DNA of 37,171 nt from a virus. Of the stretch, positions 1-37,171 are shown in pieces (positions within the stretch are counted from its first letter, which is position 1; each line of letters begins with the position of its first letter). The notes under the pieces are model-generated. The model did not search any database. It was not told the origin of the DNA and worked only from the letters and a program-made list of their open reading frames with translations. The stretch lies in the IMG/VR virus record IMGVR_UViG_3300046103_001182; one strand, given 5' to 3'. Made by a program: the position numbers and the translations under genes.

Positions 1-150
1 ACTGGAGGCCAAGGCACTGGAGGCCAAGGCACTGGAGGCCAAGGCACTGGAGGCCAAGGCACTGGAGGCCAAGGCACTGGAGGCCAAGGCACTGGAGGCC
101 AAGGCACTGGAGGCCAAGGCACTGGAGGCCAAGGCACTGGAGGCCAAGGC
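1..150. repeat. Perfect tandem repeat, 15-bp unit ACTGGAGGCCAAGGC x10, encoding (TGGQG)n in frame +1
   Basis: Read directly: bases 1-150 are ten identical 15-mers. The same unit in the same phase ends the window (37030-37171). Confidence 0.98.
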
Positions 151-1353
151 AACAATGGAACTGGCGGCGTATCTAACGCTGATTGGCAGCAAACCCTTAA
201 TGGAATGGAGGACGCAGGGCTGCCCACAGTAGACTCTACGGGCAATCCCCTGAGAAATGATGGAACAGTGTACGACCTTAATAGTGACAACGAGTGGGTT
301 CAAATGGGGCCAACAGGGGGCCAAGGTTCAGCTTCTTCTGACTTTGTTCCACCACAAGGAAACCCTGTTCCTAGTCTAAATGGCGGGGGAGACGTTATAG
401 TTGGAGACGGCATCCGCACAGAAGCCACTGGACTAGGTGGAGTGGAGTCAGTAGACAGCTCAGGCAACCCAGACGCAAGCGGTGCATACGAAAAGAATAG
501 TCTAGGTCAGTATAGTGCTGCCCCTTCATCTACTACCTCAGAAGGCTTCAGTACCTTTGCTGCGGGAACTCCGACTGGGGCAACGCAGCCCGTTACCCTT
601 AGACTTGACGGTAAAGATACGGTAAATCTAGGGGGTTTCCAACAAGTAGTAACTCCTGATGATAAAATTGTAGCATGGTATCTTAATGACCCTCAGTGGC
701 ATGAAGAAGTAATTGTTACCGGAGTAAAACCAGAGGGAATTGAGTTTAAATTTGCGGGTGCAGCAGGCGGCGATAGGCTTTGGACTACAGCTTCCTTAGC
801 TCAATATATTGATGACATTATGGAGGGTCAAATTCCACCCGAAGCTATTTGGGACGATAACGCGCCAGCTCAAGAAGATGACGAAGAAAAGGACCCTCTT
901 TTAGAAGAGGTGGTTGTTACTGCCGACAGGCTTCCTACTGAGGACCCTTCAAACATCCCTATTGACATAAACTACGACCTCAATCCTAACGGTCAACCTA
1001 TGGACAACATTGTTGTCACAGCACCTAGACCCCCTACGACTGTTGTACCTAATGTACCTGTACCAGTACCAACGCCTATAACTACGCCCGTTCTTACGCC
1101 TATTACAGATACTTTAATTGACGGTCTTGACGGCACTGATGGCACTGATGGCACTGACGGCACTGATGGCACTGACGGCACTGATGGTGGCGGTGGGGGG
1201 ACAGGTGCAGCGGGACCCGCAGGAGCAGCAGGCGGTATGCTCTCAGGCTCAAGAGACCCTGTGCCGTTTATGGATACCCCTAGGATTCGATACCCTTCAA
1301 GAGCGGAGCAGCTTAGTATGTTTAACAGAGTTAGGTCAAGGCAGAGGAAATAG
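1..1353 (+). CDS. C-terminal part of a junction-spanning giant repeat-containing virion protein (continues from 34390..37171)
   Basis: Frame +1 is open from base 1 to TAG 1351-1353, and the ORF-track entry 205..1353 is only its first internal ATG. It contains (TGGQG)n, a P/T/V-rich linker, (DGT)6, a Gly run and a basic tail. Confidence 0.75.
   Translation, partial: TGGQGTGGQGTGGQGTGGQGTGGQGTGGQGTGGQGTGGQGTGGQGTGGQGNNGTGGVSNADWQQTLNGMEDAGLPTVDSTGNPLRNDGTVYDLNSDNEWVQMGPTGGQGSASSDFVPPQGNPVPSLNGGGDVIVGDGIRTEATGLGGVESVDSSGNPDASGAYEKNSLGQYSAAPSSTTSEGFSTFAAGTPTGATQPVTLRLDGKDTVNLGGFQQVVTPDDKIVAWYLNDPQWHEEVIVTGVKPEGIEFKFAGAAGGDRLWTTASLAQYIDDIMEGQIPPEAIWDDNAPAQEDDEEKDPLLEEVVVTADRLPTEDPSNIPIDINYDLNPNGQPMDNIVVTAPRPPTTVVPNVPVPVPTPITTPVLTPITDTLIDGLDGTDGTDGTDGTDGTDGTDGGGGGTGAAGPAGAAGGMLSGSRDPVPFMDTPRIRYPSRAEQLSMFNRVRSRQRK
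1132..1185. repeat. 9-bp coding tandem repeat GGCACTGA(T/C) x6, giving (DGT)6
   Basis: Read directly; followed by GGTGGCGGTGGGGGG (Gly5). Confidence 0.95.
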
Positions 1354-23525: not shown

Positions 23526-24380
23526 CTAACCCCTTGCGATTATGTTATTGAATTCCGCTACGTTTTGAGCCGTTACAAAAAAAGACTGATAACCCTCACC
23601 CGCGCGTTGCGTCTTATTACTACCTTTACGCTTTAAGATTCCTATGGTACCGCTAGAATCCAACGGGCGTAAGTCTGTAGTGTCAAACGATACCGCGTCA
23701 CTAGGTACCTGTATATTATCGGACTGTAATCCCTTCGTATTGTACGCTACCGCTATTTTGTAACGCGATTGTACTGCTTTTTTTAGTGCTGCTTTGCTTT
23801 GCACACTGTGCATACTAGCAGAAAATGTTAGGTCGTAATTGTCCAGTGTATTTTTACGGACACGCGACAATATTTTTGTATAGTCGTAAAATTGTGATTG
23901 TGGGCGCTCTGCTATAGTGTCAGAAAAGTCTAGGTCGCTAGTGCCGTTTAAACGAAACAGAGCGGGTATACCAGTTTTAACGGCTTTGCGCTCTGCTTTG
24001 TCTATATCTGCTTTTAACTGTAATACAAAGTAATCGTAGCGCATTAAATACCAGATGGTACGCTTTGTGGCGGCCCTGTCCGCGTTACCCTCTGCTATAC
24101 CTAATTGACCACTAGACTTTAAACAGGGCGCTTTACATCCACCTGCCACTGCCATAGCGCAAATGGTATCTAAAGCTACCTTGTCCGCTGGCTGCATATA
24201 AACAATATAGGTATCACGTTTGTCTGGTACACCCTCCGCGTTACCCTTCTCTACTTTTGTACTGGTACCTAAAATACGCATAGGTGTATTAAGATACTCT
24301 ATATTACTGTACGCCCACAATTTAGCCTTATTAGTGAGTAGCTTTGTATACATTATGTCTTTGCGAGTAATAGATAACAT
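23526..24380 (-). CDS. Cys-triad protein, possibly GP88-family-like, function unknown
   Basis: CAMAVAGGCKAPC (C-x7-C-x3-C) is followed by a basic helical segment. The start is placed at ATG 24380 (MLSITRK, AGGGA upstream) because a promoter lies inside the longer track ORF. Confidence 0.6.
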   Translation of the reverse strand: MLSITRKDIMYTKLLTNKAKLWAYSNIEYLNTPMRILGTSTKVEKGNAEGVPDKRDTYIVYMQPADKVALDTICAMAVAGGCKAPCLKSSGQLGIAEGNADRAATKRTIWYLMRYDYFVLQLKADIDKAERKAVKTGIPALFRLNGTSDLDFSDTIAERPQSQFYDYTKILSRVRKNTLDNYDLTFSASMHSVQSKAALKKAVQSRYKIAVAYNTKGLQSDNIQVPSDAVSFDTTDLRPLDSSGTIGILKRKGSNKTQRAGEGYQSFFVTAQNVAEFNNIIARG

Positions 24381-24417
24381 ACTGTTTAATCCCTGTGGTT
24401 TTTGTGTGTGTCCTGTA

Positions 24418-24445
24418 ATTATAGGGCCATATTGTATTATGTCTA
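24418..24445 (-). promoter_or_regulatory. Leftward sigma70 promoter PL (TAGACA-16-TATAAT)
   Basis: On the minus strand the -35 is TAGACA (24445-24440) and the -10 is TATAAT (24423-24418), about 40 nt upstream of ATG 24380. Confidence 0.65.
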
Positions 24446-24550
24446 TGGTAATATTAACATTTAAATAGCTGTACTTTATACGGCACCTTATGCTAGGGAA
24501 TATATACAACCTTCATTCTATTATGCGTGCGCGTGCGAATAGCACAATAC

Positions 24551-24773
24551 CCTATGGTTGTCTATAGTAAATAGTACCTTGCAATGATAGGTGTACCAGT
24601 GTAGGGCATAGGGTGCCATAGGCACCCGCCTAGGCCCACACTCCCCATGGTTGTCAATAGTATTGTGGGGTAATAATAGTGTGGACAGTCCCCTATGGTT
24701 TATGCTAGGGCCCCAGTGGATACCATAGGGGAACCCAGTGAGTACCATAAGGGAACCCAGTGAGTACCATAGG
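24551..24773. repeat. Array of CCATAGG / CCTATGG heptamer sites, including a 17/19 direct repeat
   Basis: Sites at 24551, 24607, 24616, 24644 (variant), 24692, 24723, 24745 (variant) and 24767. CCTATGGTTGTCTATAGTA (24551-24569) matches CCCATGGTTGTCAATAGTA (24644-24662) at 17 of 19 positions. Confidence 0.85.
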
Positions 24774-24780
24774 GGAACGG
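24721..24780. repeat. 22-bp iterons TACCATAGGGGAACCCAGTGAG x2.7
   Basis: Units begin at 24721, 24743 (1 mismatch) and 24765 (partial), preceded by the related CCCCAGTGGA. Confidence 0.9.
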
Positions 24781-24788
24781 TCCTGGAG

Positions 24789-24819
24789 TTATCCACAGGT
24801 TATCCACAGGTTATCCACA
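24789..24819 (+). promoter_or_regulatory. Three perfect tandem DnaA boxes (TTATCCACA) at 11-bp spacing
   Basis: TTATCCACAGG x3: boxes at 24789-24797, 24800-24808 and 24811-24819. Confidence 0.85.
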
Positions 24820-24890
24820 GGGGTCGGGGGGGTGTCGCCAAGTTTTTTCCTGATCGTGTAGCCGCACAATTTTACTAGGGGGTAAAACTG

Positions 24891-24940
24891 GCCCCTTTGG
24901 TTTAATAGTGCCCCATTTTGGTTTAATAAGGCCCCTTTGG
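24891..24940. repeat. Direct repeats GCCCC(A)TTT(T)GGTTTAATA x2 plus a partial third
   Basis: 24891-24907 and 24910-24928, then GCCCCTTTGG at 24931-24940. Confidence 0.85.
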
Positions 24941-25018
24941 ACGGTGTTTATACGCCTCAAAAACCATTAAGAATCAATAGGTTACTAAAGGTAACACCGG
25001 GTAACAAAAGGGACGCCA

Positions 25019-25037
25019 GTTTCTGCGGGACCAATGG
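25019..25037. repeat. 19-bp exact direct repeat, copy 1 (GTTTCTGCGGGACCAATGG)
   Basis: Identical to 25174-25192. Confidence 0.95.
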
Positions 25038-25060
25038 CTTGTAATTAGGCAATATTTAGC

Positions 25061-25089
25061 TTGACAGGTAACGCCTTATCTGTTATACT
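25061..25089 (+). promoter_or_regulatory. Rightward sigma70 promoter PR (TTGACA-17-TATACT, extended -10 TGT)
   Basis: TTGACA 25061-25066, 17-bp spacer, TATACT 25084-25089, preceded by TG at 25081-25082. Confidence 0.75.
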
Positions 25090-25100
25090 ACACCTAAGGT

Positions 25101-25148
25101 ATAAGAAGAAAAAAAATATTATTTAATTATAAATTAATTTATTAAAAT
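25101..25148. other. AT-rich tract of about 48 bp (2 G, 0 C); candidate DNA unwinding element or AT-rich leader
   Basis: ATAAGAAGAAAAAAAATATTATTTAATTATAAATTAATTTATTAAAAT. Confidence 0.6.
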
Positions 25149-25158
25149 CCTAAGGAAG

Positions 25159-25174
25159 CCATAGGTACCTATGG
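25159..25174. promoter_or_regulatory. Perfect 16-bp palindrome CCATAGGTACCTATGG (two inverted CCATAGG sites); operator-like
   Basis: Read directly. It extends to a 22/24 palindrome and covers ATG 25171. Confidence 0.8.
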
Positions 25175-25590
25175 TTTCTGCGGGACCAATGGGTTATAGG
25201 AGGGATTCTTTGATTGACACTGAAAAAAAGATAGGAAGACCAAAAAAGTCTAAGGCCCAAGAAAACCTACCTTCAAAGCCTAGGTCTGATCGTAGCATTA
25301 TGGAGGCGTACAGACAGCGCCTCTTAAACAGCCCATCTAGTGAAAAGGTAATAAGAAAGGTGTTCCAAACAGCCTTAGACGATGAGCATACCCACCAAGC
25401 TGCGTGTATGAAGATGATAATGGATAGGGTGTTACCTGCCACTGGTTTCTCCGAAGTAGTGTCTGGGGGACAACAAAGACAGTCAATACAAATAAATATC
25501 AGCGGTCTTCAGAGTGTAGAGGTTAACTCACAGGGTTCTGAGCCAGACGCCGAAGACGCTGTATTTACCCCTGTGGTGGACAATGGGTGA
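25171..25590 (+). CDS. Probable small terminase subunit (start uncertain: ATG 25171 or TTG 25210)
   Basis: Lies immediately upstream of, and overlaps, the large terminase. Basic N-terminus KKIGRPKK; the ...MKMIMDRVLP segment resembles small terminases. TTG 25210 has AGGAGG 6 nt upstream. Confidence 0.55.
   Translation: MVSAGPMGYRRDSLIDTEKKIGRPKKSKAQENLPSKPRSDRSIMEAYRQRLLNSPSSEKVIRKVFQTALDDEHTHQAACMKMIMDRVLPATGFSEVVSGGQQRQSIQINISGLQSVEVNSQGSEPDAEDAVFTPVVDNG
25174..25192. repeat. 19-bp exact direct repeat, copy 2
   Basis: Identical to 25019-25037, 155 bp away. Confidence 0.95.
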
Positions 25591-26842
25591 TTTAAACGTA
25601 TCCCTACTCCCGTGGCAGCAAGAAGTCTGGGCTGATGACGCCCGGTTCAAAGTAATAGCTGCGGGTCGTAGGTGTGGTAAAAGCCGTTACGCGGCCTACA
25701 GGCTCCTTGTAGAAGCCCTCCAGACTACCAAGGGAGAGGTTTTTTACGTTGCACCTACGCAGTCCCAAGCAAGAGATATTATGTGGAAAACCCTCATAGA
25801 GATAGGGGGTGATTTAATAGAAAAAAGTCACATAAACAACTTACAACACACACTCGTTAACGGCACCACAATATCGCTAAAGGGTGGAGATAGACCAGAT
25901 ACCATGAGGGGCATAAGCCTTAAGTTCCTTGTAATAGATGAGTACGCCCAAGTTAAGCCTTTTATCTGGGAAGAAATACTAAGACCAGCCCTAGCAGACT
26001 TAAAGGGTGACGCTGTGTTTATTGGTACCCCTGAGGGGCGTAATCACTTTTACGATCTGTATATGTACGCAGACACTAAAGAAGACCCCCAGTGGAAAGC
26101 ATGGCACTTTACATCCTATGATAACCCACTCCTAGACCCCGAGGAAATAAAAGGGGCTCAGAAATCAATGTCTTCTTATGCTTTTAACAAAGAATTTAAG
26201 GCATCGTTTAACGCCCAGGGCTCCGAAGTATTCAAAGAAACATGGCTTAAGTTTGACAAAGAGGAACCCAAAAGAGGTGACTATTACATAGCCATAGATT
26301 TAGCGGGTTTTGAAACCCTAGGAACTAAGCAAAGAAACACACGGCTAGACGATACAGCCATTAGCGTTGTAAAAGTAACAGACGAAGGGCACTGGTGGAT
26401 TAAAGAGATTATTTACGGGCGCTGGGATTTAAAAGAAACAGCACAAAAGATATTCAAAGCCGTTTCTAAATACAGGCCCGTAGCCGTTGGTATAGAAAGA
26501 GGCATAGCACAACAAGCTGTCCTAAGCCCCTTGAGCGACTTGATGCGTAGAGAGAACAAATACTTTAACATACAAACGCTAACCCACGGTAACAGAAAGA
26601 AATCAGACCGTATTATTTGGTCACTACAAGGGCGTTTTGAACACGGTAGGATAAGCTGCAACGAAGGAGAATGGAATACAAAGTTCATGGACCAGCTATT
26701 CCAGTTCCCCTCACACCTAACCAAAGATGACCTCATAGATTCCCTAAGCTACATAGATCAACTAGCTACAGTTCCGTATTGGAACCTAGAAGACATGGAC
26801 GAAGACACCTACGAATCCTTAGATATAACAAGCGGGTATTAA
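25583..26842 (+). CDS. Terminase large subunit
   Basis: Walker A AAGRRCGKS, Walker B FLVIDEYA, and C-terminal RNaseH-like acidic residues (AIDLAG, DDTAISVV, DDLIDSLSY). Confidence 0.9.
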   Translation: MGDLNVSLLPWQQEVWADDARFKVIAAGRRCGKSRYAAYRLLVEALQTTKGEVFYVAPTQSQARDIMWKTLIEIGGDLIEKSHINNLQHTLVNGTTISLKGGDRPDTMRGISLKFLVIDEYAQVKPFIWEEILRPALADLKGDAVFIGTPEGRNHFYDLYMYADTKEDPQWKAWHFTSYDNPLLDPEEIKGAQKSMSSYAFNKEFKASFNAQGSEVFKETWLKFDKEEPKRGDYYIAIDLAGFETLGTKQRNTRLDDTAISVVKVTDEGHWWIKEIIYGRWDLKETAQKIFKAVSKYRPVAVGIERGIAQQAVLSPLSDLMRRENKYFNIQTLTHGNRKKSDRIIWSLQGRFEHGRISCNEGEWNTKFMDQLFQFPSHLTKDDLIDSLSYIDQLATVPYWNLEDMDEDTYESLDITSGY

Positions 26843-34389: not shown

Positions 34390-37171
34390 ATGGAACAAGA
34401 CTCAGGAATGCTTAAATCTCTTATTACTGGAAAAACATGGCGCAGCATGAATGATGCTGAAAAAGCAGCTCATGTCTTAGGGCGAGGAGAAAATACGGCA
34501 GGGTACAATACAGAAGCAGGGCAGGCATGGCTAGATGCAAATGTAGGTTCTTCTCAAGACCAAATTAACTTGTTTGTTGCAGCAAGAGATGCGGCAGGAG
34601 AAAGAATTAAGGGGGGAACTTTTAATCAACAGAATGACCCCGCAGCAGTTGCTTTAGCATCCCGTTTAGCACAGGCAGCCCAACCCGCATATAACAACCC
34701 ATCCGAATTTGGGGGCGTAGGCACAAGTGGAAAAGCTACTTTAGGCATAAACTACAGAAACCCTGTTGATACGGGTAAGTTTGGGAACACTATCGCCGCC
34801 CCAGAAAAAGCATTTTCTAACGGGTTACAAACAACAGGTGCATGGGATAACAGAGAAGGATGGACCTTATATAACCCGGAAACACGAAAGTTTGAGAACT
34901 ACGCAGATCAGGGGCGTGCGTCAGGGAGGAATCCCTTTACTCCTGGTAACGGAAACACAGGTTATTACCAGACAGCAGACGGTACAACAGTATTGGGCTT
35001 CCTTCCTTCTGAATCCACACAGGTTGATGACGGCACAGGAAGCGGTACTGTATCCGTATCTGCTACTTCACCTCTTACAAAACAAGAGCTGGCAATAGGA
35101 ACAAATATGTGGTCAAAAGCTCTTAGCACTCCTGAGGCTAAAGCACAAATGACACAATGGGCCAAGGCTAATCCTAATGACCCCAGAGCCCAAAAAATAC
35201 TAAACGCTTCCATGGCAAACGCCATGTGGTCAAACGCTTTAAATACTCCTGAGGGTAAGGCATCCATGGTTGCATGGGCCAAGGCTAACCCTAATAACCC
35301 CACAGCCCAAGAAATACTAGTTGGGTCAGCACCTGCATTATTTACAGGCACTTACTCTGACGCTACTGATATTATCAGAGAGTCTTCTAATATATTCCAC
35401 TCCGATAACAGGGGCAACGACCGCAGCGTTGAGCTTGACGGAGTTCTTTCAACCGAGTCTTTTCAGACGGCCTATGTCAATGGCCTCAGGACTGAGCCTA
35501 ACACTAACCCACAAGAATTTTTTAATAGTGTACACACGATGTTTGCCCTTGACCCTGAAGAATTCAAAAGATGGCAGTCAAACCCAGAAAACAGGGACAT
35601 GGCAGTACGTTTTCATGCTATGGCTGCGACTGATAGCTTCAGTGCCAATGGCTATAATTGGGGTGAAGAAAAATGGTCAAAGAAAAAGCACCAAGAATAC
35701 GCTGATGTTTTAGGTAACGAAATTAGAAAAGATTTAGGTTGGGGTGATGAGTACGAGCGTGACGGAAGCATGATTGCTACGAATTATAGCGGTAATGTTA
35801 GCAAAGACGTTAATAACCCACAAAGCGGTGGCGATTTTTGGAAGATAGGAACACCAGAAAAAGTTACTGACGGTGTGCGAAACTTTGTTAAGGATAACCC
35901 TGTAAAGTCAGCAGCTATTCTTGCGGCTATAGCGTTTGCTCCCTACGCCCTAGGACAAGTAGCAACGGCAGCAACGGCAGCAACGGCAACAACAGCAGCA
36001 ACAACAGCAGCAGCAGCAACGGGTTTAACAGGCGTAATGGCAGGTATTGTACCTGCGGGGTTTGCATTACCCGCTGCTGTAGGAGTCTACACGGCAGGCA
36101 CACAAATAGGAACGCAGCTTCTTAGTGGAGAAAAAATTGATTTAAAGGCAGCCTTAACAACGGGGGCTATTTCAGCCGCTACTGCGGGTCTTGTTCAATG
36201 GGGTACAACAGAGCTTGTAAATATATCAAACGGTGCATTATCCGTTGATAACGCACAGCGCGTTGTTGGCGTAACTTTAGAAACACTAAAGAACGGAGGT
36301 GACCCTGTAGCTGCTATTAGTCAGTCTTTGCTAAACGAAGGTATAAATATTGCTAGGGGAGCCGTAGGAAACTTTGTATCTGGGTTTGGAACTGAGGCCG
36401 CGAGCTTAGATTTTCCTGATGGGTTTGGGCCTGCTGCTGGTATGCCCACAATGGCACAAGAAATGGCGTCAGGAGGAGGAGGACTTCAAGCTGGCGGTTT
36501 TAACCCCTTTGGTGATATTGCAAACACCGACCCTACTAATTCACCAGTAAATTTAGATGATTTAGATATTTTTACTGATACAACTAACACAACTAACACA
36601 ACTAGCCCTACTGTTTATGATGACCCTACACAGCAGCTAATAACAGACTTGGGTAACGGAACGTCAGGCGTCCTTACATCTAGTGGTCTTTCACAACCAA
36701 GACCTACGGTGCCCATTGATTCAGCTACATCGTTAAGTGATTTTGATATTTTTAACGATACGGCGACTGGTTTAAATCAACCCCCGACAATAGAAACTAG
36801 GAATTATAATGGAACAATAGACGCTGAAACAACTAGCAATATGTCTTACGATGAGTTTGAGACTGTTTTAGACGGACTCGCAGACAACGGTTACCCCCTT
36901 ACGGACACAGACGGAGAATACTTAGCTCCAGACGAGAACTATACGCTTAATGACGGGGACCAGTATTGGACTAGAACATCCGAAGCACAGCCCGAAACCA
37001 TTTTTAATGATACAGTAAACGAAAACTTTACTGGAGGCCAAGGCACTGGAGGCCAAGGCACTGGAGGCCAAGGCACTGGAGGCCAAGGCACTGGAGGCCA
37101 AGGCACTGGAGGCCAAGGCACTGGAGGCCAAGGCACTGGAGGCCAAGGCACTGGAGGCCAAGGCACTGGAG
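34390..37171 (+). CDS. N-terminal part (927 codons, no stop in the window) of the junction-spanning giant repeat-containing virion protein
   Basis: Hand translation of frame +1 from ATG 34390 to the window end found no stop. Frame anchors were checked at 34801, 35401, 36001, 36601 and 36901. It ends in (TGGQG)n, in phase with base 1. Confidence 0.8.
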   Translation, partial: MEQDSGMLKSLITGKTWRSMNDAEKAAHVLGRGENTAGYNTEAGQAWLDANVGSSQDQINLFVAARDAAGERIKGGTFNQQNDPAAVALASRLAQAAQPAYNNPSEFGGVGTSGKATLGINYRNPVDTGKFGNTIAAPEKAFSNGLQTTGAWDNREGWTLYNPETRKFENYADQGRASGRNPFTPGNGNTGYYQTADGTTVLGFLPSESTQVDDGTGSGTVSVSATSPLTKQELAIGTNMWSKALSTPEAKAQMTQWAKANPNDPRAQKILNASMANAMWSNALNTPEGKASMVAWAKANPNNPTAQEILVGSAPALFTGTYSDATDIIRESSNIFHSDNRGNDRSVELDGVLSTESFQTAYVNGLRTEPNTNPQEFFNSVHTMFALDPEEFKRWQSNPENRDMAVRFHAMAATDSFSANGYNWGEEKWSKKKHQEYADVLGNEIRKDLGWGDEYERDGSMIATNYSGNVSKDVNNPQSGGDFWKIGTPEKVTDGVRNFVKDNPVKSAAILAAIAFAPYALGQVATAATAATATTAATTAAAATGLTGVMAGIVPAGFALPAAVGVYTAGTQIGTQLLSGEKIDLKAALTTGAISAATAGLVQWGTTELVNISNGALSVDNAQRVVGVTLETLKNGGDPVAAISQSLLNEGINIARGAVGNFVSGFGTEAASLDFPDGFGPAAGMPTMAQEMASGGGGLQAGGFNPFGDIANTDPTNSPVNLDDLDIFTDTTNTTNTTSPTVYDDPTQQLITDLGNGTSGVLTSSGLSQPRPTVPIDSATSLSDFDIFNDTATGLNQPPTIETRNYNGTIDAETTSNMSYDEFETVLDGLADNGYPLTDTDGEYLAPDENYTLNDGDQYWTRTSEAQPETIFNDTVNENFTGGQGTGGQGTGGQGTGGQGTGGQGTGGQGTGGQGTGGQGTGGQGTG
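35107..35322. repeat. Tandem duplication (117-bp period) encoding two copies of a 32-aa module
   Basis: MWSKALSTPEAKAQMTQWAKANPNDPRAQKIL versus MWSNALNTPEGKASMVAWAKANPNNPTAQEIL (22/32 identical). Confidence 0.85.
37030..37171. repeat. Perfect tandem repeat, 15-bp unit ACTGGAGGCCAAGGC x9.5, identical to bases 1-142
   Basis: Read directly. Confidence 0.98.

Follow-up and report, generated by a model that had tools for sequence, protein, structure and literature searches.

A phased array of consensus DnaA boxes tied to an iteron and G-run core in marine podovirus-like phages, a possible accessory helper of replication

DnaA is the universal bacterial replication initiator, and clusters of the 9-mers that it recognizes (DnaA boxes) are already known from plasmid and phage-plasmid origins, from lambda and from T5. 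In the origins of the plasmids P1, F, RK2 and R1 such boxes stand beside iterons. The low-affinity arrays of Escherichia coli oriC have gaps of exactly 2 bp, a single orientation and a common helical face, and this one-face layout permits cooperative filling by DnaA (PMC4451416). At plasmid iteron origins DnaA assists the initiator, and the boxes of R1 are stimulatory but not required (PMC4980987). The virulent phage T5 carries eight boxes in the injection-stop (iss) region of its terminal repeat, away from its mapped origins (bioRxiv 10.1101/866236). Here we describe an array of three consensus DnaA boxes in IMG/VR virus record IMGVR_UViG_3300046103_001182, a circularly assembled genome of 37,171 bp (the window, meaning the whole stretch analyzed) from an uncultured marine lytic podovirus-like phage. 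The array lies in a non-coding region of 829 bp (24381-25209) that separates divergent early (replication) and late (packaging and structural) operons. We tentatively favor the reading, with somewhat less than even confidence, that it is a DnaA-oligomer module acting in cis on an iteron and G-run core, most likely as a non-essential helper of phage replication initiation. The array and the two elements that adjoin it are:

24789-24797, 24800-24808 and 24811-24819, plus strand: three exact DnaA boxes TTATCCACA, head to tail, separated by GG
24712-24778, plus strand: three iterons of 22 bp, CCCAGTGAGTACCATAGGGGAA, directly left of the boxes and ending 10 bp before the first of them
24820-24832, plus strand: G-run GGGGTCGGGGGGG, directly right of the boxes; family consensus CCGGGGGRGGG

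The boxes share one orientation, with a period of 11 bp and gaps of 2 bp, and belong to an 11-bp unit, GTTATCCACAG, present three times without mismatch (24788-24821, then G). All three match the R-type consensus TT[A/T]TNCACA (TTATNCACA). A preliminary description of this DNA had placed perfect boxes at 24789, 24800 and 24811 in 11-bp phase on the plus strand, immediately after iterons, and had put the chance expectation for the 9-mer at about 0.3. Each of these statements holds: the expected total is about 0.28 (2 x 37171 / 4^9), and exact TTATCCACA occurs nowhere else on either strand of the 37,171 bp. Matches with one mismatch elsewhere in the window (7) do not exceed chance, with 10 in all versus 7.9 +/- 2.8 in shuffled sequences. 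Because slippage creates tandem repeats, the chance test we chose was that an 11-bp tandem unit contains TTATCCACA by accident. This gives 22/4^9 = 8e-5 per array and about 0.002 over the approximately 25 Tandem Repeats Finder (TRF) arrays of the window. An assembly artefact is excluded because L508 and L509, independent assemblies of the same phage, carry an identical array. Related and unrelated phages have arrays of this kind too, which shows the array to be genuine and under selection.

That host DnaA binds the array is very probable, as judged from how its sites vary and where else they occur. Among family 9-mers located 11 or 12 bp from an exact box, 46 substitutions were counted, 25 of them at position 5, 16 at position 3, three at position 1 and two at position 4, with none at positions 2 and 6-9. 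As read from these sequences, the pattern matches the known DnaA tolerance TT[A/T]TNCACA plus the TTGTCCACA variant. When gaps of 0-20 were allowed in sampled viral contigs, the commonest same-strand spacings were 11 bp (94) and 12 bp (81), and lesser peaks followed at 21-23 and 33 bp. The identical triple was found in at least 120 bacterial genome contigs from many phyla, and 43 of the 120 sampled had a DnaA-like open reading frame (ORF) within 1 kb of it, as called by a purpose-made regular expression for DnaA signature motifs. Two control 9-mers of the same composition, searched in the same triple arrangement, occurred in only 1 and 3 IMG/VR contigs, whereas the DnaA box occurred in at least 119. 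Phages that share no genes carry the same array, and the simplest ligand is therefore a universal host protein.

It could be argued that the repeat has nothing to do with DnaA and is either a functionless product of slippage or the site of a phage protein that resembles a DnaA box. DnaA binding is, after all, predicted from sequence, and the region is rich in other phage-specific repeats. We consider this very improbable: the chance value is about 0.002 for the window alone, the substitutions follow what DnaA tolerates, control motifs are 40-100 times rarer, the same 9-mer array recurs in phages sharing no proteins, and the array outlasts both divergence of its flanks and changes in copy number.

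The behavior of the array within the phage group is informative. Close relatives were defined by synteny, with gp82 and GP88 genes reading leftward and terS-like and terminase large subunit (TerL) genes reading rightward of the non-coding region, and were ranked by identity of the terS-like protein:

Window, L508 and L509: 99-100% identity; three boxes, forward
L309, L519 and L520: 88% identity; four boxes, forward, one of them TTATGCACA, with spacings of 11, 11 and 12 bp
L510-L512: 84% identity; no boxes, extra iterons running directly into the G-run
L513-L515: 75% identity; nine boxes, all reverse, again placed between iterons and G-run
L516: 56% identity; no boxes

The array is thus present in three of five close lineages. 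A relative with 85% identity in TerL has a four-box array at the same spot, and L309 and L519 keep their four boxes beside a diverged right flank. Among relatives at a greater distance (TerL about 65%), at least three boxes are present in 13 of the 51 cases with enough upstream sequence; some reach up to 13 boxes, in mixed orientation, so that copy number in the family runs from 3 to 13, and the rest have different, lineage-specific repeats in place of boxes. The preliminary description had proposed looking for the boxes in related genomes, and the outcome is divided, since some close lineages keep them and L510-L512 and L516 do not.

No landmark of the non-coding region is better conserved than the G-run. 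Every family member examined has one, with or without boxes (L309, 657-672; L513, 1624-1640; L142, 2718-2735; L157, 378-392), and it lies to the right of the array or, where the array is absent, to the right of lineage-specific iterons. The iterons themselves are kept in L309 and L519, expanded in L510 and different in L513, L516 and L176. For 18 of 19 family arrays, irrespective of how many boxes there are and which way they point, the distance between the end of the last box and the G-run is 0-20 bp. The array is thus accessory and indifferent to orientation, having been gained, lost, expanded and inverted, and its position is locked to the iteron and G-run core. An essential role as origin opener is disfavored because the array is dispensable in the group. 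Separately, the box-less relatives L128, L135, L158, L175, L194 and L199 have other short repeats upstream of the terS-like gene, which are specific to their lineages (CATGCCAAC, CTTTAAAGA, GCAATCTGC, CTATGACAA and CTCGTGTTG(CAT)).

A freely varying, maximally attractive set of sites could also be a sponge for DnaA, or a modulator acting in trans: by titration as phage genomes accumulate, or by a change of nucleotide state of the kind brought about by datA and DARS, it would switch off or deregulate initiation at the host chromosome and the genes under DnaA control. Titration by chromosomal boxes and by datA is an established control principle. Perfect consensus boxes would have maximal affinity, their number (3-13) and orientation are free, their distribution is patchy and accessory, and arrays are found in very different phages, including the single-stranded DNA Microviridae. 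A trans-acting sponge, however, could sit anywhere in the 829 bp, yet 18 of 19 arrays abut the G-run, and three sites per genome make a small sponge. It is also not clear what a fast lytic phage would gain, given that it encodes a replisome and ribonucleotide reductase of its own. Because the position is locked to the G-run and iterons, a local function in cis is favored over a free sponge, which we regard as improbable.

The remaining features of the non-coding region and the genes that border it are:

24680-24688, minus strand: weak box-like 9-mer TGTGGACAG, 7/9 match, not kept as a box in near relatives
24445->24418, minus strand: predicted promoter P_left, TAGACA-16-TATAAT, reading into the early/replication operon
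24891-24940, plus strand: GCCCCTTTGGTTTAATA direct repeats, about 2.5 copies with a 21-bp period, single copy in L309 and L519
24972-24984, plus strand: AATCAATAGGTTA, a match to the IHF consensus WATCAANNNNTTR, the only one in the window
25061-25089, plus strand: predicted promoter P_right, near-consensus sigma-70-type, TTGACA-17-TATACT with TG before the -10 element
25109-25148, no strand: A/T tract, 40 nt of pure A/T, less stable than any other 40-mer of the window and about 290 bp to the right of the boxes
23526-24380, minus strand: first leftward gene, Pfam GP88 family (mycobacteriophage L5 gp88-like), probable start ATG at 24380
25210-25590, plus strand: first rightward gene, 126 aa, presumed terS or DNA-binding protein, start TTG at 25210 after AGGAGG, overlapping the TerL start
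25583-26842, plus strand: TerL

From left to right, the order is P_left, CCATAGG repeats, iterons, boxes, G-run, GCCCCTTTGGTTTAATA repeats, IHF match, P_right and A/T tract. The CCATAGG core of the iterons also occurs at 24550, 24643, 24689 and 25159. The divergent sigma-70-like promoters and the downstream AT tract of the preliminary description are both there, the tract as a pure A/T run spanning 25109-25148. Two of its other elements exist but do not last among relatives. The upstream 7/9 box is not kept in near relatives (it reads TGTTGACCT in L509, for example) and the GCCCCTTTGGTTTAATA repeats are reduced to one copy in L309 and L519. Both were dropped as parts of the element as unconserved. 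The IHF match, which has the G-run on its left and P_right on its right, is shared by L309, L519 and L510, where only N positions differ; since chance predicts about one such match in 37 kb, it counts as no more than a hint.

P_right is conserved in L309, L519, L513, L142, L157 and L176 and reads into the A/T tract and then into the terS-like/TerL/portal operon. P_left falls inside 24429-24468, the 40-mer of the window that ranks second lowest in stability. DnaA also works as a transcription factor, for instance at its own promoter and at lambda pR, and the array could therefore be a sensor through which DnaA would tune P_left (early), P_right (late) or both to the DnaA-ATP level of the host. 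Its location between divergent promoters is what such a sensor would predict, and 42 of the 115 intergenic viral arrays with both flanks found lie between divergent ORFs, in gaps that are long (median 636 bp; 116 of 124 viral-contig arrays are intergenic). P_left and P_right are, however, about 345 and about 240 bp away from the boxes, which is too distant for occlusion or direct contact. Relatives have the same promoters without boxes, and orientation and copy number vary freely. We therefore think a sensor distinctly unlikely.

The leftward genes (24380 -> 11528) have early and replication functions. They include L5 gp88-like and L5 gp82-like genes, a methyltransferase, a gp2.5-like single-stranded DNA-binding protein (SSB), a T7-type primase-helicase, an HNH endonuclease, a family-A DNA polymerase, a Cas4-like exonuclease, an endonuclease, a nucleotide kinase and ribonucleotide reductase. 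The rightward genes, from 25210 on, encode a small basic protein, TerL, portal, scaffold, capsid, tail and lysis functions and continue across the assembly break. This rightward operon is a packaging operon (terS-like, TerL, portal), a point that the preliminary description had overlooked. Its first protein has a basic, AT-hook-like GRP motif at the N-terminus, and Pfam AT_hook scores above its cut-off in the relative L142. An ATG upstream of the gene, at 25171, is not kept in L309. The AlphaFold model of the protein has a mean predicted local distance difference test (pLDDT) score of 64.5 and a predicted template modeling (pTM) score of 0.33, and Foldseek against PDB returned no match at E <5. 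Nothing was found for this protein or the GP88-like one in NCBIfam or PDB sequence searches. Its identity as a small terminase is positional and presumed. Rfam gave only a sub-threshold chance match on the non-coding region, and no tRNAs were found.

The phage itself is far from cultured ones. A megablast of the region against cultured phages gave no match; the best primase-helicase match among them has 48% identity and the best TerL match about 33%, and the TerL is distantly T5-like, with about 27% identity. Tara Oceans scaffolds contain the same phage and an 85% relative. The ends of the window (1-151 and 37030-37171) consist of a 15-nt tandem repeat, ACTGGAGGCCAAGGC, with suffix equal to prefix over 142 nt. 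This repeat encodes (TGGQG)n, and an ORF of more than 900 aa spans the junction. The window ends are an assembly break within a coding repeat, not real terminal repeats.

Several further observations concern the non-coding region. The block at 24450-24545 (TTAACATTTAAATAGCTGTACTTTATACGGCAC...ATTATGCGTGCGCGTGCGAATAGCACA) is near-identical in the relative with 85% TerL, exceeding the conservation of coding sequence, and has no match in Rfam. A perfect 16-nt palindrome, CCATAGGTACCTATGG, lies at 25159-25174, and a direct repeat, GTTTCTGCGGGACCAATGG, occurs at 25019 and 25174; these and the A/T tract could be candidate binding sites, of pac type, for the terS-like protein. In L157, positions 1-88 versus 534-617 show P_right and the first 30 nt of the terS-like gene (MTTEVKKRGR) duplicated, inverted and slightly diverged. 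In some distant relatives this duplication is found where the non-coding region begins on its left side, and many contigs break there. Because the duplication is inverted, both divergent operons there share a promoter and an N-terminal peptide. Genome ends cannot be taken from where contigs stop, as such stops are assembler breaks at iterons or inverted duplications and were discarded as uninformative.

The same type of array is found well beyond the marine group, in Berlinvirus coliphages, gokushovirus-like Microviridae, Arthrobacter siphoviruses and T5-like, Lactococcus 949-like and Vibrio phages; Vibrio BD1 and BD5, Proteus, Lactococcus 949-like and T5-like phages also match the array search. 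In Shigella phage VB_Ship_A7 (Berlinvirus, a T7 relative, MK685668) the first and last 177 bp form an identical direct terminal repeat, which consists almost wholly of about eight DnaA-box-like units (GTTATCCACAG and variants) spaced at 11-12 bp (L003, 1-177; L522, 383-559). Phages P483 and phiEap-1 have the same units, and all of these are unannotated. Klebsiella T7-like phages and Vibrio BD1 have arrays about 100-190 bp from the ends of their records, those of Klebsiella phages again unannotated. Arthrobacter phages have four boxes 45-110 bp from the right end with G-runs next to them; in Tiff81 (L004, 48-102) these are three exact boxes and one variant, TTGTGCACA. The microvirus bajarodmic virus 162 (L002, 1501-1555) has five exact boxes with an 11-12-bp period just after its replication-initiator gene. 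As a side observation, G-runs follow the arrays in Arthrobacter phages and in Berlinvirus too.

In IMG/VR, 77 of the 223 contigs with at least three exact boxes also encode a relative of the window's TerL, portal or terS-like protein, and because of this share the marine podovirus group is, by sequence, a major carrier of such arrays. The commonest annotated neighbors of viral-contig arrays are terminase genes, with much of that signal coming from the same group. Our literature search, whose coverage was incomplete, returned the T5 case and reviews on plasmids and oriC, and no account of such arrays for T7-like phages, marine podoviruses or Microviridae. Apparently undescribed are the accessory form, free in orientation and coupled to a G-run, in lytic phages whose replisome is T7-type, the wide occurrence of such arrays in virulent phages, and the Berlinvirus terminal repeat as an array.

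These locations raise the possibility that the region is a packaging site or terminal repeat, where DnaA would be an architectural factor for terminase or would capture, anchor or protect the genome end that enters first, an idea already put forward for the iss region of T5. In lambda cosB, IHF serves terminase as a host architectural factor, and we know of no precedent for DnaA acting in packaging, which counts against a terminus. In its favor, the rightward operon opens with a putative terS-like AT-hook protein followed by TerL and portal, and the terS-like gene begins about 390 bp downstream of array and G-run, loosely as in cosN-cosB-Nu1, with one IHF-consensus site between. The terminal repeat of VB_Ship_A7, essentially an array of box-like units, the arrays near the right end in Arthrobacter phages and near record ends in Klebsiella T7-like phages and Vibrio BD1, and the prevalence of terminase among annotated neighbors point the same way, as do the eight boxes in the terminal repeat of T5-like phages (bioRxiv 10.1101/866236). 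Yet in the window and in most related contigs the sequence continues straight across the G-run and array, and the ends of the window are an assembly break in a coding repeat. The terminase association stems largely from one broad group (77 of 223 loci), the terS-like identity is putative, and relatives without boxes package their DNA anyway. On balance we rate a terminus, packaging or entry element as rather unlikely.

A broader version of this idea is that phased consensus arrays are a widespread, uncatalogued cis-element of virulent phages near the end that enters first, with membrane-associated DnaA as a landing pad or end-processing factor. If true, the landing pad would capture, protect or position the incoming genome, a role of DnaA unrelated to origin opening. 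We hold this more general proposal to be improbable too.

The reading that we favor is instead that of a helper module of replication. With boxes of one orientation and 2-bp gaps, successive DnaA molecules would bind along the same helical face, where they could form a short cooperative oligomer. The array would be an accessory cis module attached to a conserved core made of lineage-specific iterons and the G-run. Once bound by DnaA, it may help to assemble or stabilize a nucleoprotein complex at the phage origin, which we infer to lie here, and the bound DnaA may aid in opening DNA close by that melts readily. In this way DnaA would boost initiation by the T7-type primase-helicase and polymerase that the phage encodes, without being indispensable. 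An origin at this place is suggested by the iterons that adjoin the boxes and by the two least stable 40-mers of the genome, which flank the array. The setting between divergent promoters adds to this, since iterons, boxes and easily melted DNA so placed are classical for iteron plasmid origins. A strong P_right that reads into an AT-rich stretch, together with a T7-type replisome, recalls the T7 primary origin.

A number of observations weigh against this reading. Boxes are absent in L510-L512 and L516, which have the same synteny, and in 38 of the 51 distant relatives. Because syntenic relatives do without boxes, DnaA cannot be an essential origin opener. The preliminary description had host DnaA recruited to open the origin; comparative evidence bears out the DnaA sites in this proposal, whereas the opener role fails as an essential mechanism. 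The phage has its own helicase, primase and polymerase and no recognizable initiator, as had been stated before. Searches of Pfam, PHROGs and NCBIfam with the ORFs near the region and the small early ORFs gave no Rep or other initiator family, although an initiator of unrecognized type may exist. Loading of DnaB by DnaA is unneeded because the phage encodes its own helicase. In cultured phages with known ends, arrays are carried in terminal repeats or near cos ends, not at mapped origins. The orientation of the boxes is inverted in L513 (nine reverse, versus three forward in the window). Box orientation matters in the basal unwinding system. It matters in RK2 oriV as well (PMC4980987).

The basal unwinding system itself comprises at least three DnaA-trios (3'-GAT-5'-like, NAN) starting within about 16 bp of the last box, after a short GC spacer (PMC8287927). 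No DnaA-trios were found within 16 bp of the boxes in the window, where GGGGTCGGGGGGGTGTCGCCAAG (23 nt) precedes any run of NTN/NAN triplets. A 13-nt G-run, not an unwinding element, directly follows the boxes, and the strongly AT-rich segments (25109-25148 and 24429-24468) are some 290-320 bp off rather than adjoining. With neither trios nor an adjoining AT-rich element, a basal unwinding system was rejected. The cumulative GC-skew minimum falls at the control region; it coincides with the switch of coding strand and was set aside as independent evidence for an origin.

Lytic phages with a full replisome would not be expected to need DnaA, and yet perfect oriC-style arrays are kept under selection in an abundant marine phage group and in several cultured coliphage and actinophage groups. 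If the arrays boost origin firing, phage replication would be coupled to the initiation potential of the host. If they act instead at genome ends or as sponges, a new use of DnaA would be at hand. The presence of the same element in the 177-bp terminal repeat of Berlinvirus phages of E. coli makes the question testable in a tractable system. For annotation, TTATCCACAGG repeats with an 11-12-bp period in long intergenic regions of phages may be marked as a host-factor site, where records are now left blank.

Among the known systems, the iss region of T5 resembles the window in having a cluster of consensus or near-consensus boxes set in an extensive untranslated region full of repeats, and in belonging to a virulent phage that encodes its own replisome (bioRxiv 10.1101/866236). 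The boxes of T5 are, however, paired with 3-bp gaps inside the inverted repeats IRC and IRD, whereas those of the window form a direct triple with 2-bp gaps beside iterons and a G-run, and the window array does not have the T5-type iss arrangement. The datA and DARS loci are likewise DnaA-box clusters outside an origin and act with IHF, although they have specific box arrangements and act on the initiator cycle of the cell itself. The T7 primary origin is like P_right in having a promoter that reads into an AT-rich stretch, and the primase-helicase, SSB and polymerase of the window are of T7 type. T7 itself lacks DnaA boxes and relies on its own RNA polymerase, so that the likeness concerns P_right and the A/T tract, not the boxes. 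A packaging site of the lambda cosB type has repeats bound by the small terminase subunit and a site for a host bending factor, placed between the cleavage site and terS; in the window, the interval from the G-run to the putative terS-like gene holds repeats and a single match to the IHF consensus, which would be no more than candidate counterparts.

The closest likeness in geometry is to the oriC arrays of E. coli (R5M-tau2-I1-I2 and C3-C2-I3-C1), which like the window array are 9-mers of one orientation with 2-bp gaps on the same face (PMC4451416). Arrays adjacent to bacterial dnaA genes include the identical triple, TTATCCACA-NN-TTATCCACA-NN-TTATCCACA, in many genomes. In contrast to the low-affinity arrays of E. 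coli, the sites of the window are all full consensus; they are adjoined by a G-run instead of DnaA-trios or an unwinding element, and the array is lost or inverted between close relatives. The plasmid origins (P1 oriR, F oriS, RK2 oriV, pSC101 and R1) resemble the window in combining iterons, boxes and AT-rich DNA in one non-coding region, and in P1 tandem box arrays flank the iterons. They differ from it in that no Rep (winged-helix) gene was recognized in the window, which has a T7-type replisome, and, compared with RK2, the phage boxes are fixed in position at the G-run (18 of 19 arrays) and not in orientation. In R1, DnaA is stimulatory and not required (PMC4980987), which fits the accessory status of the array in the phage group.

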